Below, one piece after another: positions 4,130 through 64,000 of a stretch of DNA of 64,000 nucleotides. Made by a program: the position numbers and the translations under genes. How positions within the stretch are numbered: the first letter of the stretch is position 1; every line of letters starts with the position of its first letter. The stretch is from an uncultured beta proteobacterium (GTDB lineage: Bacteria; Pseudomonadota; Gammaproteobacteria; Burkholderiales; SG8-41): positions 84,519 to 148,518 of the forward strand of contig CAVTHV010000016.1 in assembly GCA_963734595.1 (NCBI GenBank), given 5' to 3'. The notes below the pieces were generated by a model. That model made no database searches and was not told where the DNA came from. It saw only the letters and a list, made by a program, of their open reading frames with translations.

Positions 4130-5775
4130 TGTTTCGCTCCCGCTGTTTGCCGCTGCTGCGTCACCCGCATGAGGATTCAGGGGAAGGTAGATGCGGAACG
4201 TGGATCCCTCCCCGACCCTGCTTTCCACCTCGATCGTCCCGCCGTGGGCCCTGACGATGCCGTGGCTGACGGACAGCCCCAGCCCCGTCCCCTTTCCCAC
4301 TTCCTTCGAGGTGAAAAAGGGATCGAAGATCCGCCGCAGGTTTTTCTCCGGGATGCCGCACCCGGTGTCGATGACCGAGAGTTCCGCCATGGGCACCGCC
4401 GGCGCGCCCGGTTCCGGGCTCTTGGGCTCCGGGCAACAGACGGCTGCGGACGGTGATGCTGCCCTTCTCCTCGATGGCGTGCTGGGCGTTGACGAGCATG
4501 TTCATGATCACCTGCTTGATCAGGTCGGCGTCGACCCACGCCGGCGGCAGACTGCGGTCGAGGTCCAGGGTGATCTCGATGTCGCGCAAATGACGCGGGC
4601 CGCTCGATGATGCGCACCGTGTCCTCGATGATCTGGTTGAGGTCGGCAAATTTCTTCTCCGGCGTCTTTTCGCGGGCGAAATCGAGCAGCCTGCGGATGA
4701 TGGCGGCGCAGCGCTTGGTTTCCCGGATCACCAGGTCGAGGTCTTCCGCCTCCGGGCTCCCGTCCGGCATCTTTTTCCGCAGCAGGTGCGAGAAAGTGAG
4801 GATGCCGGTCAACGGATTGTTCAATTCATGGGCGATCCCGGCGGCGAGCAGCCCGACCGAGGCCAGTTTTTCGCCGCGCGCGGCCTCGGCCTCGGCGACG
4901 CGCAGTTCCTGGGTCCGCCTTTCCACTTTCTGCTCCAGCGTGTGGCCCCATTCCCGCAATTCCAGCTGGGAATTCTTGAGCGCCGCCGTCATGGCGTTGA
5001 ACGAGGCCGCCAGCTGCCCGAATTCGTCCCCGCTGCGCACCGGGATCGGCTGCTCCAGATTTCCCGAGGCGAGCCGCTTGGCGCCGGTTTCCAGGTCGCG
5101 CAGAGGCACATAGACCAGGCGGTGCACGAAAAAGCTGACGAAGAGCGAAGCGATGACGATGAAGCCAAGCGAAAAGCCGGCGATCGTGATCGTGTTCCGG
5201 CGCATGGTCCGGTCGATCTCGTCGAGGTTGTAGACGATGTCGAGGACGCCCAGCACCGACTGCGCCTTGGTATGCACATGGCATGCCGCGGTGTAGCACG
5301 ACGGTTCGTTGCGGATCACCTCCATGCTGCCGAGCAGCCGCCCTCCGTCCGGATTGGCGAAAATCCGCGCCCTCTTGTTCGTGGGAATCTGCGCCAGCGG
5401 CGTCTCGCCCTGGTGGCAGAGGAAGCAGGCTTCGGCTTTCCGGTTCACCTTCATCCCGATTTCCGGCGGGAAGGTGGAGGAAATGATGCGCCCGTCCTTG
5501 CTGAAGATCCGGACCTTCTGAATGTGCTCCTGGCGTCCCACGTCCATGAGAATCCGGTTTACGTAAGCGGGCTGGTTCTGGAGCATGGCGAAACGGGTGC
5601 TCCTGGTGATCACCTCGGAGAGCTGGGTGACGTGGCTCACCGCCTGGTCGAGGAGCTGATCCCGCTGATACCGGACGACCAGCAGGGTGAACACGAGCAT
5701 CGCCGCCATCAACGCGATGGCGAGATAAATGGCGACTTTGAGCTTGAGCGTCTGCGAGCGCATTCTCTCCCTCAC
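4130..5775 (-). CDS. Sensor histidine kinase (TM, periplasmic CXXCH domain, HAMP, HisKA, HATPase) interrupted by two apparent +1 frameshifts
   Basis: Three ORF pieces cover it (4177..5775, 4161..4649 and the N-terminal part of 2711..4396). H-box [11 protein letters not shown]-box [10 protein letters not shown] and G-boxes DTGCGIP/GTGLGL are present. The periplasmic loop has CFLCH. Frame breaks lie near 4590 and 4430. No stop codon separates it from the downstream regulator. Confidence 0.8.
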
Positions 5776-5904: not shown

Positions 5905-5918
5905 TTGACCTGTATCAA
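5905..5918. promoter_or_regulatory. FNR/Dnr-type box TTGACctgtATCAA
   Basis: Perfect TTGAY-N4-RTCAA palindrome in the divergent region between the kinase gene (-) and the c5-fusion gene (+). Confidence 0.5.
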
Positions 5919-13905: not shown

Positions 13906-14655
13906 CTACTGCAACAGGCCGCTCAGGCCCGGCACCACGCGACACAACAGCCCGTCGGCGGCGAAGACGGCGGGCTGCGTGGCCTTGATGATGCCGAAAA
14001 TCCCCAGTCCGCCGATGACGATGCTGCTTGCAACACGCAACGGGCGCAGCGCCGCAAGCTTCCGGACCTGACCGTACAGCAGCGAAATAGCCAACAGGTT
14101 CGGCAGGGTGCCGAGACCGAAAGCGAACATGACCAGCGCGCCCTGGCGGGCGTCGGCCGTTGCCATCGCGGTGAGGAGCAGCGCATAGACCATGCCGCAC
14201 GGCAGCCAGCCCCACACCGCGCCCAACCCCAGCGCACGCGGCACGGAGTCGACCGGAAGAAACCAGCGGGAATAAGGTTGCACGCGGCGCCATACCACCG
14301 CTCCTGCGGCCTCGATGCCGCGCGCGACCGGCGTCACGCCCGCCACATACAGCGCAAGCAGCAGCAGCGTGGCGCCGGCAAAGAACATCATGACGTGCTG
14401 CGCCAGAGGCCCGCCGCGCAGCCACAGCCCGCCCTGGCCAAGGGCGCCGGCCAGGGAGCCGGCCACGGCGTAGCTGAAAATGCGCCCGCCGTTATAGGCC
14501 AGCGCATAACGCCATTGCCGGGGAACCCTTTCACCGCCGGCGCGCGGCCCGCTGACGATGCCGACAATGCCGCCGCACATCGCCGCACAATGCGCGCCGC
14601 CCATCAGCCCGGCGACGAAAGCGCTGGTTACGACCAGTTCAAGCCAGCCGTTCAT
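13906..14655 (-). CDS. TauE/SafE or DsbD_2 family membrane protein
   Basis: 249-aa polytopic protein with the N-terminal motif GGAHCAAMCGG. This type is commonly linked to cbb3 oxidase maturation loci. Confidence 0.7.
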   Translation of the reverse strand: MNGWLELVVTSAFVAGLMGGAHCAAMCGGIVGIVSGPRAGGERVPRQWRYALAYNGGRIFSYAVAGSLAGALGQGGLWLRGGPLAQHVMMFFAGATLLLLALYVAGVTPVARGIEAAGAVVWRRVQPYSRWFLPVDSVPRALGLGAVWGWLPCGMVYALLLTAMATADARQGALVMFAFGLGTLPNLLAISLLYGQVRKLAALRPLRVASSIVIGGLGIFGIIKATQPAVFAADGLLCRVVPGLSGLLQ

Positions 14656-14787
14656 TGCGATTGAGGCGTAAGCGGTGAGCGGAAGTGGAAGTGAGTGCGG
14701 GATGAAGAGTCAAGTCAAAAACGTTGCGAATCGAACACCCGAATCTCGAGCCCTGAATCCTGAATCCCGGATCCTGAACCCTCTGCG

Positions 14788-16419: not shown

Positions 16420-17172
16420 ATGTTAGCCCAGCCCAAGCTCATCCCGGTCGACCTCGGCAAGCTCAAGACCGTCTGTGCCACGTGCAGCCTGCACGAGCTA
16501 TGCCTGCCCGCGGAGCTCGACCCGAACGAACTGGCGATCTTCGACCGGCTGTTTACCCACCGCCGGTCCGTAAAGCGCGGCGACTATCTTTACCGCGCCG
16601 GCGCGGAACTGCAATCGCTCTACGCCATCCGCACCGGCTTCATGAAAAGCTGCGTGTTGCACGAGGATGGCCGGGAGCAGGTCGCGGGCTTTCACATGAT
16701 GGGCGACCTGCTGGGGTTCGATGCGATCAGCTCGAACCGCCACACCTGCGACACCGTGGCGCTCGAAGACAGCGATGTCTGCGACATCCCGTTCCATTCG
16801 CTGGAAAAACTGTCGCGCGAAATTCCGTCGCTGCAGCATCATTTTCACCGCATGATGAGCCGCGAAATCGTGCGCGACCATGGCGTGATGCTGCTGCTTG
16901 GCAGCATGCGCGCGGAAGAGCGCCTGGCCGCTTTTCTGCTCAACCTGTCCCAGCGCTTCGCCGTGCGCGGCTATTCGCCGACCGAGTTCAACCTGCGCAT
17001 GACGCGGGAGGAAATCGGCAGCTATCTCGGCCTCAAGCTCGAAACCATCAGCCGCGTGCTGTCCCGCTTCCAGGAAGAGGGGCTGATCGATGTGCGTAAT
17101 AAACACATCAAAATCAACGGCCTGGATAAAATACGGGCACTGGTCAACCCGCCTTCCGCGCCTAAACCCTGA
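16420..17172 (+). CDS. fnr: FNR-type oxygen-sensing Crp/Fnr family transcription factor
   Basis: N-terminal Cys cluster CATCSLHELC (C-X2-C-X5-C) plus internal Cys residues, a cNMP-like domain, and an HTH with E..SR (REEIGSYLGLKLETISRVLSRF). Confidence 0.9.
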   Translation: MLAQPKLIPVDLGKLKTVCATCSLHELCLPAELDPNELAIFDRLFTHRRSVKRGDYLYRAGAELQSLYAIRTGFMKSCVLHEDGREQVAGFHMMGDLLGFDAISSNRHTCDTVALEDSDVCDIPFHSLEKLSREIPSLQHHFHRMMSREIVRDHGVMLLLGSMRAEERLAAFLLNLSQRFAVRGYSPTEFNLRMTREEIGSYLGLKLETISRVLSRFQEEGLIDVRNKHIKINGLDKIRALVNPPSAPKP

Positions 17173-44692: not shown

Positions 44693-45382
44693 ATGTCGGC
44701 CAAACCGATCAGGATCCAGGACTTTCTCACCAATCTTCCGCTGTTCCGGCAGCTCGGCAGCGGCGATATCGACCGCATCGCGGAAGGCGCAACCGAAATC
44801 GATGCGCCGCGCGGCAGCATCCTCTTCCGGCGCGGCGACCCGTGCAACGGTTTTCATATCGTGATCTACGGCCAGGTCAAGCTTGCGCTGGAGGCGCCGC
44901 ATGGCCATGAAAGGGTCGTCGAGCTCGCAGGCCCCGGGAACAGTTTCGGTGAAGCGATGATGTTCCTGGAAAAACCCTACATGGTGACCGCCGAAACCCT
45001 CGCCGATACCAAGCTCCTGCACGTCGCGAGGGAAATGGTGTTCGCCGAAGTCGACTGCGATCCGCGCTTCGCGCGCCGCATGATCGCCGGGTTGAGCCAT
45101 CGCCTGCATCATCTGATTTCCGACTTCGAAATGGTCACGCTGCATTCGGGCACGCAGCGCGTGATCGGCTACCTGCTGCGCGATGCCACCGAAGACAGCC
45201 GCATATCGGAGCTGCAGGTGACGCTGCCGGCAAAAAAAAGCATCATCGCCTCGCACCTGAACCTCACGCCGGAACATTTCTCGCGCATCCTGCATGAACT
45301 GAGCGTGGCGGGCCTGATCAAAGTGTCGGGCCGCAACGTGGTCATCCTCGATATCGGGCGGCTGCGCACCCACGGCGGCTGA
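44693..45382 (+). CDS. Crp/Fnr family regulator lacking the FNR Cys cluster (Dnr/NnrR-like)
   Basis: cNMP-like domain and an HTH with the FNR-type recognition residues (IASHLNLTPEHFSRILHEL). No N-terminal C-X2-C-X5-C cluster. Confidence 0.8.
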   Translation: MSAKPIRIQDFLTNLPLFRQLGSGDIDRIAEGATEIDAPRGSILFRRGDPCNGFHIVIYGQVKLALEAPHGHERVVELAGPGNSFGEAMMFLEKPYMVTAETLADTKLLHVAREMVFAEVDCDPRFARRMIAGLSHRLHHLISDFEMVTLHSGTQRVIGYLLRDATEDSRISELQVTLPAKKSIIASHLNLTPEHFSRILHELSVAGLIKVSGRNVVILDIGRLRTHGG

Positions 45383-56104: not shown

Positions 56105-56803
56105 TCAGCTCCTGCTGCGCACGATCTGATAGGCGCGCGCCACATAAGCGACCGCGCCAAAGCCGCTCCACACGTGGACCAGGCGCGAGAACGGGAACAG
56201 CACGAACAGCGTCATGCCGAAGAACAGGTGCACCTTGTAAATCGGGTGCACGCCGGCGATGAACGCGGCCGCGCCGCCGCGCAGGGTCACGATATGCTGC
56301 GCCCAGTTGGCGAGCAGGATCATCACGCTGCCGTCGGTGTGCCCGAGCGAGACGTAGATGCTGGCGAGCCCCAGCGAGAGCGTGACCAGTATCCACAGCA
56401 GGATGAAAATGTCCATGCGGGTCGAGGTGGCGCGGATGCGCGGCTCGGTCAGGCGCCGGTGGACCAGCAGCAGCATGCCCGCCAGACACAGGGCACCGAA
56501 TACGCCGCCGGCGGTGATCGCCAGCATCTGTTTCGCCTCGGTCGACAGTCCCAGTGCGTGGTACAGCTCTTTCGGCGTCAGCAGCCCGGCCATGTGGCCG
56601 AAGAAGAGCGCGAGGATCCCGATATGGAACAGGTTGCTGCCCAGCCGCAACTGGCCGCGCTTCAGCAATTCGCTGGAATCGCTTTTCCACGTGTACTGTT
56701 CGCGGTCGAAGCGGATCAGGCTGCCCGCGAAGAACACCGTCAGGGCGAAATACGGGTAATACCCGAACAGAATCTGGTTCAAATAGCCGGAAATATCCAT
56801 CAT
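56105..56803 (-). CDS. narI: Respiratory nitrate reductase gamma subunit
   Basis: FGYYPYFALTVFFAGSLIRFDREQYTW, HIGILALFFGH and FSRLVHVWS. Confidence 0.95.
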   Translation of the reverse strand: MMDISGYLNQILFGYYPYFALTVFFAGSLIRFDREQYTWKSDSSELLKRGQLRLGSNLFHIGILALFFGHMAGLLTPKELYHALGLSTEAKQMLAITAGGVFGALCLAGMLLLVHRRLTEPRIRATSTRMDIFILLWILVTLSLGLASIYVSLGHTDGSVMILLANWAQHIVTLRGGAAAFIAGVHPIYKVHLFFGMTLFVLFPFSRLVHVWSGFGAVAYVARAYQIVRSRS

Positions 56804-56813
56804 CGCTCTCCCG

Positions 56814-57473
56814 TCATGCCACTTTGTTCATGAAGCGGACCACCTGCACCTTCGGTTTCACATCGGTGCAGCCGGGTCCGAAAATCACCGGCTCGTCCAC
56901 CCACTCGTCGTCGAGCGCGGGCGTCTCCGCAGCGCGCGGCGCGCGCGGTTTCGGCTGGTAATCGAGCGCCGGCTCGCCGGCGATGGCGAGCAGCGCGCCG
57001 GGCACCGCGCCGTAGCGGCTGTCATGCCCGACCAGCGCCTCGCCGACCGCGCGCAGGACGTGGGCGCAGTCGCCGAGCATCTCGCGCACTTCCTCGGGCG
57101 GCCGCGTGGAAAGATACTCGAGCACCGCCGGCAGGTAGTCAGGCAGCTCGTTCGCCGCGATCGCCATGCCGTGGCTCGCGTAGAGCGCGTTGAGATCCAC
57201 CATCGCCTGGCCGCGATCGCGCGCGTCGCCGTGCACGTGCTCGAACAAATGCAGGGAAGTCGCGCGCCCGCGGTCGAACAGCTCGACGTAGCGCTCCTGC
57301 GCGTCGAGCGGATCGGCCGCGGCGAGCTCGTCGATCAGCGCGGCAAGCCGCGTCCGGTCGTCGCGCCCGAGCCGTTTTTCCGCCTCGACGATGCCGCGGA
57401 TCTCGGGCAGCGCCGCGAGCAGCGCCGGTTCGGGATAAGTCAGCAGGGCAGCGAGTGCTTTCAGTGTGCGCAT
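56814..57473 (-). CDS. narJ: Nitrate reductase molybdenum cofactor assembly chaperone
   Basis: LLTYPE, YVELFDRGRATSLHLFEHVHGD and LPDYLP. Confidence 0.9.
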   Translation of the reverse strand: MRTLKALAALLTYPEPALLAALPEIRGIVEAEKRLGRDDRTRLAALIDELAAADPLDAQERYVELFDRGRATSLHLFEHVHGDARDRGQAMVDLNALYASHGMAIAANELPDYLPAVLEYLSTRPPEEVREMLGDCAHVLRAVGEALVGHDSRYGAVPGALLAIAGEPALDYQPKPRAPRAAETPALDDEWVDEPVIFGPGCTDVKPKVQVVRFMNKVA

Positions 57474-57482
57474 GGGGGTCTC

Positions 57483-59003
57483 CTAGACTGCCGCCTTGAT
57501 GGGGATGACTTTCCGCTTGCCGCCGAACAGGCTCGCCTTGCTTTCGCCGTCGGAGCAGCCGTTGCCGAACGAGAAGCCGCAGCCGCCGCGCAGGTCGAAC
57601 GCATCCTCCGCGTACTCGCGGTGCGCGGTCGGGATCACGAAGCGGTCTTCGTAATTGGCGATCGCCATGTAGCGGTACATCTGCTCGACGTCGTGCACGC
57701 TCATGCCGACCTGCTTCAACACCTCGCTGTTCTCGCGCTTCTCGACGTGCCGGTCGCGCATGTAGGCGCGCATCGCCAGCATGCGCTCGAGCGCGGCCGC
57801 CACCGGCGCCTCGTCGCCCGCGGTCAGCAGGTTGGCCAGGTACTGGAGCGGGATGCGCAGGCTGCGCACGTCGGGCAGCTGGCCGAACGCGCCGACCTGG
57901 CCCGAATTCGCCGCCGCCGTGATCGGCGACAGCGGCGGCACGTACCACACCATCGGCAGCGTGCGGTATTCCGGGTGCAGCGGCAGCGCCACTTTCCAGT
58001 CCATCGCCATCTTGTAGACCGGCGAGGCTTTCGCCGCCGTCAGCCACGATTCCGGCACGCCGTCTTTGCGCGCCTGCTCGATCACCTCCTGCGCGTTCGG
58101 ATCGAGGAACAGGCCGAGCTGCGCCTTGTAGAGGTCTTTCTCGTCGGCGACGCTCGCCGCTTCCTCGATGCGGTCGGCGTCATACAGCAGCACGCCCAGG
58201 TAGCGGATGCGGCCGACGCAGGTTTCCGAGCACACCGTCGGCTGCCCGGACTCGATGCGCGGGTAGCAGAAGATGCACTTCTCGGCCTTGCCGCTCTGCC
58301 AGTTGTAATAGATCTTTTTGTACGGGCAACCCGACACGCACATGCGCCAGCCGCGGCACTTGTCCTGGTCGATCAGCACGATGCCGTCCTCCTCGCGCTT
58401 GTAGATCGAGCCCGACGGGCACGACGCGACGCACGTCGGATTCAGGCAGTGCTCGCACAGGCGCGGCAGGTACATCATGAACGTGTTCTCGAACTGGCCG
58501 TAGATGTCCTTCTGCACGGACTCGAAGTTCGCGTCCTTCGAGCGCTTGGCGAACTCGCCGCCGAGAATTTCCTCCCAGTTCGGGCCCCACTCGATTTTCT
58601 CCATGCGCTCGCCGCTGATCAGCGAGCGCGGCCGCGCCACCGGCGGCGCCTTCATCTCGGGCGCGGTGTGCAGGTGCTCGTAATCGAAGGTGAACGGCTC
58701 GTAATAGTCGTCGATCTGCGGCAGGTTCGGGTTGGCGAAGATCTTCATCAGCAGCGACAATTTGCCGCCCTGCTTCGGCTCGATCTTGCCGTTGCTCTTG
58801 CGCACCCAGCCGCCGTTCCACTTGGACTGGTTCTCCCATTGCTTCGGATAACCGATGCCGGGCTTGGTCTCGACGTTGTTGAACCACGCGTATTCCATGC
58901 CGGGCCGCGAGGTCCACACGTTCTTGCAGGTGACCGAGCAGGTGTGACAGCCGATGCACTTGTCCAGATTCAGCACCATGCCGATTTGCGCGCGCACTTT
59001 CAT
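57483..59003 (-). CDS. narH: Respiratory nitrate reductase beta subunit
   Basis: Intact 506 aa. MKVRAQIGMVLNLDKCIGCHTCSVTCK plus further FeS Cys clusters. Confidence 0.95.
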   Translation of the reverse strand: MKVRAQIGMVLNLDKCIGCHTCSVTCKNVWTSRPGMEYAWFNNVETKPGIGYPKQWENQSKWNGGWVRKSNGKIEPKQGGKLSLLMKIFANPNLPQIDDYYEPFTFDYEHLHTAPEMKAPPVARPRSLISGERMEKIEWGPNWEEILGGEFAKRSKDANFESVQKDIYGQFENTFMMYLPRLCEHCLNPTCVASCPSGSIYKREEDGIVLIDQDKCRGWRMCVSGCPYKKIYYNWQSGKAEKCIFCYPRIESGQPTVCSETCVGRIRYLGVLLYDADRIEEAASVADEKDLYKAQLGLFLDPNAQEVIEQARKDGVPESWLTAAKASPVYKMAMDWKVALPLHPEYRTLPMVWYVPPLSPITAAANSGQVGAFGQLPDVRSLRIPLQYLANLLTAGDEAPVAAALERMLAMRAYMRDRHVEKRENSEVLKQVGMSVHDVEQMYRYMAIANYEDRFVIPTAHREYAEDAFDLRGGCGFSFGNGCSDGESKASLFGGKRKVIPIKAAV

Positions 59004-62000
59004 GACTGTTCTCCTTGCACTGCAGCCGGCTCGTCGAGCCAGTCGACCGTCTTCATTTTCCTGACGACGACGAACTCGTCACGATTGGTGCCGATCGTGC
59101 CGTAATAGTTGAAACCGTAGCTCAGCTGCGCGTAGCCGCCGATCATGTGCGTCGGCTTGACGACGATGCGCGTCACCGAATTGTGGATGCCGCCGCGCGA
59201 GCCGGTGATCTCCGATCCGGGAACGTTCACGATCTTCTCCTGCGCGTGGTACATCAGGCACATGCCCTCCTTGACCCGCTGCGACACCACCGCGCGCGCG
59301 GTGATGGCGCCGTTCACGTTGTAGAGCTCGATCCAGTCGTTGTCCTCGATGCCGGCCTTCTGCGCGTCGGTCTCGGACAGCCACACGATCGGCCCGCCGC
59401 GCGACAGCGTCAGCATCAGCAGGTTGTCGGTGTAGGTCGAGTGGATGCCCCACTTCTGGTGCGGCGTGATGAAATTGAGCACGACTTCCGGATTGCCGTT
59501 CGGCTTGTGCCCCTGGATCGGATGGACCGCCTTGAGATCGACCGGCGGCTTGTACACGCAGAGCCCCTCGCCGAAGCCGAGCATCCACTTGTGGTCCTGG
59601 TAGAACTGCTGGCGCCCGGTCAGCGTGCGCCACGGGATCAGCTCGTGCACGTTGGTGTAGCCGGCGTTGTAGCTGACGTGCTCGGACTCGATGCCGCTCC
59701 ACGTCGGGCTGGAAATGATCTTGCGCGGCTGCGCCTGGATGTCGCGGAAGCGGATCTTTTCGTCTTCCTTGGCCGCCGCCAGGTGCTTGTGCTCGCGGCC
59801 GGTGATTTTGGACAGCGCTTCCCACGCCTTGACCGCGACTTCGCCGTTGGTCTCGGGCGCAAGCATCAGCACCACCTCGCACGCGTCGATGTCGGACTCG
59901 ATGCGCGGCATGCCCTTGGTGATGCCCTCCTCCGCAACCGGGTAGTTGAGCGCGCGCAGCGCATCGACCTCGTGCTCGGTATTCCACGCGATGCCCTTGC
60001 CGCCGTTGCCGACCTTCGCCATCAGCGGCCCCAGCGCCGTGAACTTCTTGTAGGTATTCGGGTAATCGCGCTCGATCACCGTGATCTGCGGCGCGGTCTT
60101 GCCGGGAACGAGGTCGCACTCGCCGCGCTTCCAGTCCTTGATGTCCGTCGCCTGCGCGAGCTCGCCCGGGGTGTCGTGCATCGTCGGCGTCAGCACCAGG
60201 TCTTTCTCGACGCCGAGCTGGCCGACCGCGACTTCGGAAAACTTTTTCGCGATGCCCTTGTAGATCTCCCAGTCGCTGCGCGATTCCCACACCGGGTCCA
60301 CCGCCGCCGACAGCGGGTGGATGAACGGGTGCATGTCTGAGGTGTTGAGGTCGTTCTTTTCGTACCAGGTCGCCGTCGGCAGCACGATGTCCGAATACAG
60401 GCAGGTCGTCGACATGCGGAAGTCCAGCGTCACCAGCAGGTCGAGCTTGCCGATGGGCGCATCTTCGTGCCATTTCACTTCCTGCGGCTTGTCGCCGCCC
60501 AGGCTGCCGAGATCCTTGCCCTGCACGCCATGAACGGTGCCGAGCAGGTGCTTGAGGAAGTACTCGTGGCCCTTGCCGCTCGAGCCCAGCAGGTTGGAGC
60601 GCCACACGAACATGTTGCGCGGAAAGTTTGCCGGATGATCGGGGTCTTCGCACGACATTTTCAGCGAGCCGTCCCTGAGCGCCTTCACCACGTAGTCCTT
60701 CGGATCCACGCCGGCGGTTGCCGCGTCTTTCGCCACCTGGATCGGGTTGAGCTGCAGCTGCGGCGCGCTCGGCAGCCAGCCCATGCGTTCGGCGCGCACG
60801 TTGAAATCGATCAGGCTGCCGCCGAATTCCTTCGGGTCCGCCAGCGGCGACAGGATTTCCTTCACCGCGAGCTTCTCGTAGCGCCACTGGTCGGTGTGCG
60901 CGTAAAAGAACGAGGTCGAATTCATCTGGCGCGGCGGACGGTGCCAGTCGAGCGCGAAGGCGAGCGCGGTCCAGCCGGTCTGCGGCCTCAGCTTTTCCTG
61001 GCCGACGTAATGCGACCAGCCGCCGCCCGACTTGCCGACGCAGCCGCACATCACCAGCATGTTGATGATGCCGCGGTAGTTCATGTCGCAGTGATACCAG
61101 TGGTTCATCGCCGCGCCGATGATGACCATCGACTTGCCCTCGGTCTTGTCGGCGTTGTCGGCGAACTGGCGCGCGACGGTGATGACATCGGCCGCCTTGA
61201 CGCCGGTGATCTTCTCCTGCCAGCGCGGCGTGTACGGCACGTCCTCGTCATAGGATTTGGCGACGTGCGCGCCGCCCAGGCCGCGGTCGATGCCGTAGTT
61301 GGCGACCATCAGGTCGAACACCGTCGCCACGCAGCACTCGCCGCCGGCGAGCGCGAGCTTCCTGACGGGAACGTTGCGCAGCAGAACGTCGGCGCCCTGG
61401 TCGTTGTTCTGGAACTGTTCGTTGACGATGCCGCCGAAGTACGGGAACGCGACCGGCACGACCTCGTCGCGGCGGTCGATCAGCGACAGCGCGCAGTTTG
61501 ACCTCGGCGCCCGACGCCGCATTCTTCGGTTCGAGATTCCACTTGCCGTCGGACTGCCCCCAGCGGAACCCGACCGAGCCGTTGGGCGTCACCACGTCGC
61601 CCGACGTCTCGTCGACGCCGACGGTCTTCCAGTCCGGATTGTTGGACTGGCCGAACTGGCCGGAGAAATCGCTGGCGCGGACAAAACGGTCGGGCACGTA
61701 GCGGTCGCCGCGTTTGACCAGCTTCACGAGCAGCGGCATGTCGCTGTAGCGCCGCACGTAGTCGCTGAAATACGCCGACGGTTTTTCGAGATGAAACTCC
61801 TTGAGGATCACGTGCCCCATCGCCATCGCCATCGCGGCGTCGGTGCCCTGCTTCGGATGCAGCCACAGGTCGCACAGCTTCGCGACCTCGGAATAGTCCG
61901 GCGTGACGGCGACCGTCTTCGCGCCCTTGTAGCGCACCTCGGTGAAGAAGTGCGCATCCGGCGTGCGCGTCTGCGGCACGTTCGAGCCCCACGCCATGAT

Positions 62001-62744
62001 GAACGTCGAGTTGTACCAGTCGGCCGACTCGGGCACGTCGGTCTGCTCGCCCCATACCTGCGGGCTGGACGGCGGCAGGTCGCAATACCAGTCGTAGAAG
62101 CTCATGCACACGCCGCCGATCAGCGACAGATAGCGGCTGCCCGCGGCGTACGACACCATCGACATCGCCGGAATCGGCGAAAAACCGATCACGCGATCGG
62201 GACCGTACTGCTTGATGGTATGGACGTTGGCCGCGGCGATGATCTCGTTGACCTCGTCCCACGTCGAACGCACGAAGCCGCCCATGCCGCGCACCGCCTG
62301 GTACGACTTCAGCTTCTGCGCATCGCCGGTGATCGCGGCCCACGCCTCGACCGGCGCTTTCGTCTGGCGCGCTTCGCGCCACAGGCGGATCAGGCGGCCG
62401 CGCACCATCGGGTACTTGATGCGGTTGGCGCTGTACAGGTACCAGCTGTAGCTCGCGCCGCGCGAGCAGCCGCGCGGCTCGTGGTTGGGCATGTCGGCCC
62501 GGGTGCGCGGATAGTCGGTCTGCTGCGTCTCCCACGTGACGATGCCGCCCTTCACGTAAATCTTCCAGCTGCACGAGCCGGTGCAGTTCACGCCGTGCGT
62601 GGAGCGCACGATCTTGTCGTGCTGCCAGCGCTTGCGGTAGCCGTCCTCCCAGGTGCGGTCTTCATTGGTGACGACGCCATGCCCGCCGGCAAACTCCGGG
62701 TGCGGGCGCGTGAAGTACGTCAGGCGGTCGAGAAAGTGGCTCAT
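59000..62744 (-). CDS. narG: Respiratory nitrate reductase alpha subunit, with one apparent +1 frameshift near 61490
   Basis: MSHFLDRLTYF.., HGVNCTGSCSWKIYVKGG. Pieces 61248..62744 and 59000..61522 join at ..GAEVKLALSLIDRRD.. once one base is removed. Confidence 0.95.
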
Positions 62745-62756
62745 GTCAAACTCCGT

Positions 62757-62845
62757 GTAATGAGTAATGGGTAATGGGTAATGGCGTAATGAGTAATCGA
62801 GCGAGAATGGTTTTACCCATTACTCATCACTCGTTACTCATCACC
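62757..62845. promoter_or_regulatory. Array of NarL-type heptamers (TACYYMT / AKRRGTA) that also forms an imperfect long hairpin, in the narK-narG spacer
   Basis: Plus strand: ATGAGTA ATGGGTA ATGGGTA (ATGGcGTA) ATGAGTA, a ~20-nt spacer, then TACCCAT TACTCAT (cactcgt) TACTCAT. The arm gtaatgagtaatgggta pairs with tacccattactcatcac with one mismatch. Confidence 0.5.
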
Positions 62846-62849
62846 AGCT

Positions 62850-64000
62850 TCAGCACGGCATTTCCGCGTTCTTGCGCGCGTAGTACCACCAGGTCATCGC
62901 GATGCAGGTCAGGTAGAACACGATGAACACGTAGAGCGCGCCCTCGGGCCCGCCGGTCATCGAGATCGAGGTGCCGTAGCTCTTGGGAATGAAGAACCCG
63001 CCGTAGGCTGCCATCGCCGAGGTGAAGCCCAGCACCGCCGCCGCCTCCTTGTTGGCGTCCTTGATCGCCTGCTCTTTCGCATCCGTGCCCCTGCCCTCCG
63101 CGTCGCGCAGCCGCTCGGTCATGAAAATGACCGGGATCATGCGGAAGGTCGAGCCGTTGCCGATGCCGGTGGTCAGGAACAGCACCATGAACATCGCGAG
63201 AAAACCGTAGAAGTTGCCGGCCGCGGGCCCCCAGGGCAGGGCCAGCGCGCCCGCCGCCCCTTTCGGCAGGAAATAGAGCACGCCGACCACCGCCAGCGCC
63301 ATCGCGATGAAATTCCAGAACGTGACCGGTGCGCCGCCCAGCTTGTCCGACAGCCAGCCGCCGAAAGGCCGGATCACCGCGCCGACCAGCGGGCCGAGAA
63401 ACGCGAAGGCGAGCGCGTTCACTTCCGGAAACTGCGACTTGATCAGCAGCGGGAAACCCGCCGAGTAGCCGATGAACGAACCGAAGGTTCCGAGGTAGAG
63501 CCAGCACATCAGCCAGTTGTGCTTGCGCTTGAAAATCACCGCCTGCTCCGAAAACGACGCCTTCGCGCTGGCGATGTCGTTCATGCCGAACCATGCGGCG
63601 ATCGTCGAAACCACGATGAACGGCACCCAGATGAAACCGGCGTTCTGCAGCCAGATCTTGCCGCTTGCGGCGCCTTTGACCCAGGTCTGCGGTTCGCCGC
63701 CGAGCGCGCCGAACACGCCGGCGGTGATGACCAGCGGCACGACGAACTGCACGACCGACACGCCGAGGTTGCCGAGCCCCGCGTTCAGGCCCAGCGCCGA
63801 GCCCTTGCGTTCCTTGGGAAAAAAGAAACTGATGTTGGCCATGCTCGAGGCGAAATTGCCGCCGCCGAAGCCGCACAGCAGCGCCAGCGCCACGAAGGTC
63901 GGGTAGCTGGTGGTCGCATCCTGCACGGCGAAGCCGATCCCGAGCGCCGGCAGCAGCAGCGAAGCCGTCGAAATCGCGGTCCACTTGCGGCCGCCGAAAA
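62850..64000 (-). CDS. narK: Nitrate/nitrite MFS transporter, 5' end beyond the window
   Basis: FGGGNFASSMANISFFFPK and GNGSTFRMIP. The frame stays open to position 64000. Confidence 0.9.
   Translation of the reverse strand, partial: FGGRKWTAISTASLLLPALGIGFAVQDATTSYPTFVALALLCGFGGGNFASSMANISFFFPKERKGSALGLNAGLGNLGVSVVQFVVPLVITAGVFGALGGEPQTWVKGAASGKIWLQNAGFIWVPFIVVSTIAAWFGMNDIASAKASFSEQAVIFKRKHNWLMCWLYLGTFGSFIGYSAGFPLLIKSQFPEVNALAFAFLGPLVGAVIRPFGGWLSDKLGGAPVTFWNFIAMALAVVGVLYFLPKGAAGALALPWGPAAGNFYGFLAMFMVLFLTTGIGNGSTFRMIPVIFMTERLRDAEGRGTDAKEQAIKDANKEAAAVLGFTSAMAAYGGFFIPKSYGTSISMTGGPEGALYVFIVFYLTCIAMTWWYYARKNAEMPC

Follow-up and report, generated by a model that had tools for sequence, protein, structure and literature searches.

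A convergent pair of heptanucleotide repeat arrays between narK and narG of a betaproteobacterium: probably an intergenic repeat of a widespread type rather than a nitrate switch

Tandem arrays of 7-nt units have been described in several groups of bacteria. In Xanthomonas campestris and X. axonopodis, GGGAATC arrays form 70-75 convergent inverted pairs per genome, in intergenic DNA (Rehm et al. 2015, PMC4692102). Among long simple-sequence repeats, those with a 7-nt unit predominate in many prokaryotes, including Burkholderia (Mrazek 2007, as cited in PMC4679880), and polymerase slippage has been proposed as their origin (Mrazek 2007, as cited in PMC4679880 and PMC4692102); cyanobacteria have the short tandemly repeated repetitive (STRR) heptamers (Mazel 1990, as cited in PMC4692102 and PMC4679880). 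Direct repeats of TAACTGA occur in marine Beggiatoaceae, Cyanobacteria and Bacteroidetes within a few nt of start codons, where a post-transcriptional role has been proposed for them, and only one inverted case was found among 170 sets (MacGregor 2015, PMC4679880). The kind is already known and poorly understood: intergenic heptamer repeats are abundant and unexplained.

Heptamers also have a place in nitrate regulation. The NarL sites of enterobacterial nitrate-regulated promoters are TACYYMT heptamers, of which the high-affinity form is the 7-2-7 pair (TACYYMT-NN-AKRRGTA); E. coli NarL binds heptamers in several arrangements, and narG of E. coli is a classic NarL target. Hairpins between the cistrons of an operon are familiar too: REP/BIME elements act as intercistronic mRNA stabilisers, as in E. 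coli malE-malF, and REP-type intercistronic hairpins can keep 3' exonucleases out of the upstream segment, so that genes of one operon may be expressed at different levels. The activation of narK and narG by NarL and FNR is restated in a study of NarS, an sRNA that RNase E releases from the 3' UTR of narK in Salmonella and E. coli, in which an intra-operonic nirD stem-loop is also discussed (PMC7038943).

The window analysed here, that is, the whole 64-kb stretch of DNA, carries a nar locus on its minus strand. The 3' part of narK (62850..64000), truncated by the window end, encodes a NarK/NarU-type nitrate/nitrite MFS transporter (NCBIfam PRK15034 NarU, 7.7e-126; TIGR00886) and closes with a TGA stop codon at 62852-62850. 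The narG gene (59000..62744, ATG at 62744-62742) lies in two reading frames with one extra base near 61494: positions 1-416 of TIGR01580 fall on the ORF 62744-61248 and positions 414-1235 on the ORF 61522-59000, and the 1-nt insertion is visible on alignment with three relatives; it may be a sequencing error or mark a real pseudogene. The remainder of the operon, narH, narJ and narI (56105..59003; TIGR01660, TIGR00684 and TIGR00351), lies downstream of the element. The element is confined to the 105-nt spacer between narK and narG (62745-62849), wholly outside coding sequence; in the direction of transcription it starts 5 nt past the narK stop and ends 12 nt ahead of the narG ATG. The spacer region is an AT-richer island, with 43% GC against ~65% in the surroundings. 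By its sequence and folds, the ribosome-binding region of narG (62742..62756) reads ACGGAGTTTGAC and then ATG, with GGAG at 62754-62751, and the base of the predicted stem extends into it; two related loci, L140 and L196, have an equivalent GGAG/GAGG, TTTGA and ATG ahead of narG.

On the plus strand the element opens with four abutting units, GTAATGA GTAATGG GTAATGG GTAATGG (62757-62784), followed by a single extra C between heptamer units (62785) and two further units, GTAATGA GTAATCG (62786-62799). Beyond a non-repeat 10-nt centre (62800..62809) come five opposed units, GTTTTAC CCATTAC TCATCAC TCGTTAC TCATCAC (62810-62844). As transcribed, on the minus strand, the 5' arm of the hairpin (62810..62844) is purine-rich, GTGATGA GTAACGA GTGATGA GTAATGG GTAAAAC, and has TAA or TGA stops in all three frames; the 3' arm (62757..62799) is pyrimidine-rich, CGATTAC TCATTAC G CCATTAC CCATTAC CCATTAC TCATTAC. 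In minimum-free-energy structures the 10-nt centre forms the loop region jointly with the flanking degenerate units. The sequence-only reading had described this layout well. Its 105-nt spacer is what we read from the sequence; its two opposed blocks of abutting heptamers both have period 7 in Tandem Repeats Finder (5.7 copies at 62757-62797 and 3.9 copies at 62818-62844); and its stem of ~17 bp with one mismatch agrees with the inverted arms, which are complementary at 90% over 21 nt, 88% over 25 nt and 82% over 28 nt. The at least seven exact matches to the NarL consensus that it reported can likewise be counted: across the 64 kb, where 8.2 exact matches to TACYYMT are expected, there are 16, of which 62760-62841 alone has seven (minus strand, four; plus strand, three).

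These seven matches are not independent events, because all of them are one unit (YCATTAC) tandemly copied. Placed head to tail, YCATTAC reads ...TAC-YCAT..., so that the TACYYMT match arises from the unit itself. Only one array of GTAATGR type is present in the 64-kb window, and the pattern GTAATGRGTAATG, allowing up to 2 mismatches, has 9 matches there against 0.5 expected, 8 of the 9 inside the element.

For comparison we assembled 86 orthologous regions upstream of narG: 80 from metagenomes, three plasmid or chromid loci (Variovorax, Cupriavidus necator pHG1 and Ideonella) and the three closest NarJ relatives with long contigs (L204-L206, at 88, 85 and 81% identity). Each of these regions has 0 or 1 NarL heptamer, against seven in the window. 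Besides the window, three of the 83 metagenome and plasmid loci have heptamer arrays directly upstream of narG. L125 has CCCATCA three times plus CTCATCG at -41 to -14 from the narG ATG, and L140 has CCCGTCA five times at -51 to -12, both in the same sense orientation (units CCATCAC and CCGTCAC, respectively); L137 has a related heptamer hairpin upstream of narG. The arrays of L125 and L140 run in a single direction, and their readings of the NarL heptamer, CACCCAT and CACCCGT, lack its defining TAC core. Among the window, L125 and L140, the added inverted arm is present only in the window lineage. In the remaining ~450 kb of those loci we found only one other strong heptamer array. The doublet CRTYAC-N-CRTYAC is absent elsewhere in the ~520 kb of window and nar loci, and the three arrays therefore represent either one old, concertedly evolving and often-lost array or repeated gains at a favoured site. 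The clustering of heptamer arrays upstream of narG could reflect selection at this site.

Turnover at the site is seen most directly in the pair L140/L196. The N-terminus of L196 NarG is 95% identical to that of L140, and the L140 array is missing from L196 as a clean ~36-nt indel that falls between the stop codon and the conserved GGAG-TTTGA-ATG; the L196 spacer reads GAGC, GGAGTTTGA and ATG. L140 thus has five units where L196 has none, and the window, L125 and L140 differ from one another in both unit and number. The closest NarG relative of the window (L124, 87.5%) has an 81-nt spacer that is heptamer-free, and the three NarJ relatives L204, L205 and L206 have unrelated spacers of 94, 37 and 56 nt. 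Overall the narK-narG spacer is hypervariable, ranging among relatives from 14 to ~190 nt of unrelated sequence (lengths taken from annotation, gene calls or direct reading, since automatic ORF-based estimates are unreliable in high-GC DNA). A search for NarJ homologues found relatives 95-99% identical, on contigs of at most 4 kb that end short of the spacer, and a search with the NarG N-terminus found only partial proteins at 83% identity or less and no same-species spacer. Related arrays are thus shown to come and go at the narK-narG site between close lineages.

The same repeat is widespread in other genomes. Scanning a genome collection with one genome per species for GTAATGRGTAATGRGTAA, we found arrays at no fewer than 120 loci in many phyla. 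Among the matches listed, most are cyanobacterial; others are from Bacteroidota, Acidobacteriota, Chloroflexota, Verrucomicrobiota, Planctomycetota, Firmicutes and Gammaproteobacteria (Psychromonas), and they include a betaproteobacterial metagenome-assembled genome of 62% GC. About a quarter of the arrays listed have an inverted partner within 250 nt, and many others are plain tandem arrays. The paired arrays have stems made of heptamer runs and non-homologous loops of 5 to >100 nt, with 3 to >19 copies per arm; the copies have only the heptamer unit in common, and not length, loop, ends or flanks. In the betaproteobacterial metagenome-assembled genome, (GTAATGG)3-GAAAAAC-(CCATCAC)3 occurs twice. 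One copy (L065) separates two co-directional acyl-CoA dehydrogenase genes, 13 nt past a stop codon and shortly ahead of the second gene's Shine-Dalgarno sequence; the other (L068) lies between co-directional genes for an enoyl-CoA hydratase and a short-chain dehydrogenase, ~55 nt upstream of the next start codon. As far as position in the sequence goes, these two sites and narK-narG have the same general layout of stop codon, hairpin, Shine-Dalgarno sequence and ATG. A BLAST search of the 105-nt spacer against plasmids and chromids gave two marginal matches (Caedibacter and Oscillatoria), with a short query and possible low-complexity masking, and a literature search for the repeat as a sequence string gave no match.

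The paired arrays have a strong preference for one arm order. Of 118 GTAATGR arrays with enough flank among the matches listed, 32 have a convergent partner, placed downstream, and one a divergent partner, placed upstream; the window element shares the convergent polarity of 32 of the 33 paired arrays listed. When all period-7 pairs at the same loci are considered, the purine-rich arm leads in 22 of the 23 with a GTAATG-like unit and in 10 of the 13 with another unit; in both sets of counts a few loci are represented by several arrays. In the Xanthomonas GGGAATC pairs, too, the purine/G-rich arm is first (PMC4692102). Fold-back or chance juxtaposition would yield both arm orders, and thus neither explains the polarity. 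We also considered stop codons in the leading arm as the cause, an idea that does not extend to GGGAATC, GGCGAAT and GTCAAGA arrays.

Set beside the described systems, the element is like the Xanthomonas GGGAATC arrays in that tandem 7-nt units, in a high-GC proteobacterium, make up convergent arrays that can form a stem-loop; the Xanthomonas arrays are nearly all intergenic, often lie between co-directional genes and vary in length between relatives, and the same holds here. It differs from them in that its unit, GTRAYGR, is not G-quadruplex-forming and in that there is one copy in 64 kb. With the cyanobacterial STRRs it shares period-7 tandem arrays outside genes, and the GTAATGR unit itself is abundant in cyanobacterial genomes; unlike here, those arrays are mostly single-direction (the quarter that is paired, among the arrays listed, was given above), and the host here is a 65%-GC betaproteobacterium. 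The TAACTGA repeats are likewise tandem heptamers that contain TAA and TGA, lie near start codons and are patchy across phyla, but their unit is different and they are almost always direct repeats. The classical NarL sites resemble the element in the exact unit match and the adjoining narG, and are otherwise unlike an intra-operon array with opposite block orientation, no 7-2-7 pair, no promoter or FNR site and no conservation. Like REP/BIME elements and the nirD stem-loop, the element places a stable hairpin in the extragenic stretch that separates cistrons of the same transcript; unlike REP/BIME, its stem consists of tandem heptamers and not of a fixed 35-nt palindrome, there is no consensus of the GTAG-head type, and we see no sign of RAYT-mediated spread. 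Another structured RNA found right behind the narK stop codon in a nitrate-respiration locus is NarS. NarS, however, has a Rho-independent terminator, binds Hfq and comes from a narK that is a separate transcription unit, whereas here there is no U tract, narG follows within 12 nt and no Rfam match of substance was found.

The predicted hairpin is very stable on either strand. The sense strand, which corresponds to the narK-narG mRNA, folds at -35.8 kcal/mol (z -5.5) and the antisense strand at -39.7 kcal/mol (z -6.2), and none of 200 shuffles folds as stably as the spacer element. Since both strands fold equally well, nothing marks the RNA as the selected form. We rejected an asymmetry of G-U pairs between the strands as evidence for an RNA hairpin, the antisense folding slightly better than the sense strand; this asymmetry fails also in L065, where mismatches are on the sense strand. 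Covariation and covariance models are meaningless here because the stems are repeats. A permissive-threshold Rfam search of the region gave weak matches of eukaryotic miRNA-like families, far below gathering scores, the best being a plant miRNA family at 26.7 bits against a gathering score of 88. The narG Shine-Dalgarno sequence has a predicted unpaired probability of 0.43 when the element is present and of 0.71 after in-silico deletion of the element, and when the part under a ribosome terminating on narK is forced open, the unpaired probability of the narG AUG region goes from 0.33 to 0.66. These predicted effects on translation access are modest and model-dependent, and the element may equally be neutral.

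We consider it probable that the element is a convergent pair of heptanucleotide simple-sequence-repeat arrays, of the GTRAYGR/YCRTYAC unit family, in a hypervariable spacer, and that it belongs with the cyanobacterial STRRs, the Xanthomonas GGGAATC arrays and the Beggiatoaceae TAACTGA arrays. Its place is within the run of genes narK-narGHJI, and promoter and terminator signals are absent around it. The arrays would have grown in place by replication slippage or unequal exchange and, 7 not being a multiple of 3, heptamer repeats would survive only outside coding sequence. Co-transcribed with narK-narGHJI, the element would fold into an imperfect stem of ~40 bp, which would probably be a passive barrier to 3' exonucleases or a processing boundary, favouring the narK segment. 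The stem may also slightly lower access to the narG ribosome-binding site. A ribosome that finishes narK would melt the lower part of the stem, which would favour translational coupling. By analogy, the element would most likely work like an intercistronic hairpin of REP/BIME type; the hairpin may modestly affect mRNA stability or narG translation. Three observations count against the generic-repeat reading. One is that the 64-kb window has one array. Another is the notable coincidence that a unit matching TACYYMT stands ahead of narG, as only ~0.7% of all heptamer units (112 of 16,384) fit that consensus in any register or strand. The third is the recurrence of heptamer arrays directly ahead of narG, which could mean selection.

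The sequence-only reading had called the heptamers NarL-type and offered three functions, an internal nitrate-responsive promoter, an mRNA-processing or attenuation hairpin and a REP-like element. In the first of these, phosphorylated NarL on the seven heptamers would drive an internal narGHJI promoter or block read-through from narK, and would make narG nitrate-responsive independently of narK. The seven exact TACYYMT matches within 88 nt and the position directly ahead of narG invite this reading, but the label rests only on the consensus match of the unit, and a single unit, copied in tandem, accounts for every match. The spacer has no 7-2-7 pair, the best candidates carrying 3 mismatches; the two blocks are divergent, facing away from each other, with their nearest heptamers 18 nt apart; and the 7-bp period would place successive sites on different faces of the helix. 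Nor is there any sign of a promoter. We found no sigma-70-like (-35/-10) promoter in the narK-narG spacer and no FNR box there, against 13 perfect TTGAY-N4-RTCAA boxes elsewhere in the window (0.11 expected), and because the array ends 12 nt before the narG ATG there is no room for a promoter downstream of it. In five of the related loci (Variovorax, Ideonella and L204 to L206) the promoter region of narK1 has FNR boxes and no NarL pairs, and in Cupriavidus pHG1 it has neither; genes for Rrf2-family regulators, not narXL, flank the nar operon in L205 and L206, and no NarL-type regulator was found among the scanned subset of window ORFs or in the relatives' nar loci. The multiple heptamers are missing from the orthologous narG upstream regions, and the positional counterparts in L125 and L140 carry CAC instead of the conserved TAC; compared position by position, the NarL consensus match is shown to be a property of the repeat unit that is not kept in the positional counterparts. 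Finally, the repeat is abundant in organisms and contexts unrelated to nitrate, and its occurrence in unrelated intergenic regions, in other genomes, is what that reading itself had named as speaking against NarL. An operator array of this sort is therefore very unlikely. That the hairpin is an attenuator or intrinsic terminator splitting narK from narGHJI is scarcely credible: a very stable hairpin does stand directly after the narK stop codon, but no U tract follows the stem, which gives way to ACGGAGUUUGACAUG, a terminator scan of the spacer was empty, and since narG starts 12 nt past the stem without an intervening promoter, termination there would silence narGHJI. We infer that the element is not a NarL operator, promoter or terminator. 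Of the three functions offered, the REP-like option, in the sense of a generic repeat, fits best.

Other readings accept the repeat and give it a history or a role of its own. It may have been selected as a post-transcriptional element, the arrays ahead of the narG ribosome-binding site being kept in several lineages as a protein-binding or standby platform and, here, as a hairpin setting the NarK:NarG ratio. Same-family arrays at -41 to -14 in L125 and -51 to -12 in L140, the related hairpin in L137, CRTYAC doublets unique to this site in the ~520 kb of window and loci, the layout common to L065 and L068 and the strong polarity rule, which hints at constraint, all fit this proposal, as does the concentration of heptamer repeats within a few nt of start codons (MacGregor 2015, PMC4679880). 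We nevertheless regard it as unlikely: the nearest relatives (L124, L196, L204, L205 and L206) are without any array, the unit sequence is not conserved, the equal folding of both strands leaves no RNA-strand-specific signal, and the three YCRTYAC arrays may all descend from a single array that some lineages lost, so that the enrichment does not count as independent evidence. A broader proposal takes GTRAYGR-type hairpins as a cross-phylum intergenic class of fixed polarity, owed to a dedicated mechanism of formation or retention instead of random slippage, with a selected role in narK-narG expression; the purine-rich, stop-bearing arm would then always come first on either strand. The recurrence of such arrays close ahead of the narG ribosome-binding site in several betaproteobacterial lineages would reflect that role. 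In this full form we think the proposal quite improbable. There is also a slim chance that a mobile REP- or MITE-like element was inserted by a transposase of RAYT or IS200/IS605 type, as a palindromic, extragenic, AT-richer island (43% against ~65% GC), missing from relatives as a clean indel and with similar hairpins dispersed in other genomes, might suggest. Yet copies elsewhere share the heptamer unit only, with non-homologous loops and flanks and variable copy number; there is no target-site duplication at the ends (AGCTG / ACGGAG), one copy is present in 64 kb, and the single-direction arrays of L125 and L140 are more easily explained by growth in place than by insertion. The marks of a MITE, a direct repeat at the ends and a core conserved between copies, are absent.

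Read as a pair of simple-sequence-repeat arrays, the element illustrates how a tandem repeat whose unit fits a short, degenerate transcription-factor consensus yields a spectacular but spurious cluster of sites; orthologous regions and the genome-wide distribution of the repeat should be compared before regulation is claimed from such clusters. To what is known of heptamer repeats our analysis adds that one unit, with one prevailing arm order (32 to 1 among the matches listed), extends across many phyla, that a stop-hairpin-SD-ATG layout is common to unrelated operons, and that arrays recur at the narK-narG junction. If the hairpin alters the stability or coupling of the narK/narG mRNA, the balance of transporter to reductase in this denitrifier would be affected.

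Paired heptamer arrays follow a strong polarity rule. Among the matches listed from the genome-collection scan (loci L004-L123), 32 pairs of GTAATGR arrays are convergent, with the inverted partner downstream, and one is divergent; when pairs with any period-7 unit are taken together, the purine-rich arm comes first in 32 of 36.

The purine arm of the window element (62810-62844, minus strand) is the 5' arm of the hairpin as transcribed, and its sequence reads TAA or TGA stops in all three frames. It also holds a mini-ORF of four codons, AUG AGU AAC GAG UGA (62831-62845, minus strand), starting 7 nt past the narK stop and lacking a Shine-Dalgarno sequence. The loop-side end of the arm (62808-62823, minus strand), GTAATGGGTAAAACC, is identical in the Firmicutes locus L015 (Halonatronum saccharophilum), and its counterpart in L065, from a betaproteobacterial metagenome-assembled genome, is the similar GTAATGGGAAAAACCC. 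This likeness of the three loop-side ends may be due to chance, or to a common mode of array decay at the loop.

The narK2-narG spacer is hypervariable in Burkholderiales-like relatives, ranging from 14 to about 190 nt across the orthologous loci (L001-L003, L124-L206), with no sequence conservation among them except a GGAG-TTTGA-ATG motif in some. Heptamer arrays immediately 5' of the narG ribosome-binding site were also found in three metagenome orthologues, as CCCATCA x4 in L125 (2960-2987), CCCGTCA x5 in L140 (1210-1249) and a hairpin of the form (GTGACTG)n-loop-(CCAGTCA)n in L137 (about 2790-2990). The array is missing from L196, whose NarG N-terminus is 95% identical to that of L140. Some long spacers, such as those of L194 and L002, carry other inverted repeats.

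The window narG itself is split between two minus-strand reading frames that overlap, one at 62744-61248 and the other at 61522-59000. When three relatives are aligned with it, the break falls at 61480-61510 (minus strand), where one additional base near 61494 gives AAACTGCGCGCTG versus AAGCT-CGCGCTG; either this base is a sequencing error or the catalytic subunit has been pseudogenised.

Perfect FNR/Dnr-type boxes (TTGAY-N4-RTCAA) number 13 in the 64-kb window, versus 0.11 expected by chance, at 5905, 7608, 10289, 16243, 17870, 23456, 28194, 33546, 35569, 38261, 41495, 41528 and 46875. Two regulators of the Crp/Fnr family are encoded in the window as well, at 16420-17172 and at 44693-45382. 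With its genes for life under little or no oxygen (cbb3 oxidase FixO, NrdG, UbiU, the nar operon), the window has the look of an FNR-regulon island.

A weaker second period-7 array in the window (14752-14782; CCTGAAT x4.4, 79% matches) lies a short way upstream of a minus-strand gene of the DsbD_2 family (13906-14655), with degenerate GGAAGTG-like units close by at 14670-14700. In the 8-kb betaproteobacterial locus L068, a further heptamer array paired with an inverted partner (4356-4395) is built on a distinct unit, GATGAAT/GATGAAC. The presence of this second array in L068 suggests that such hairpins are dispersed across that betaproteobacterial genome.
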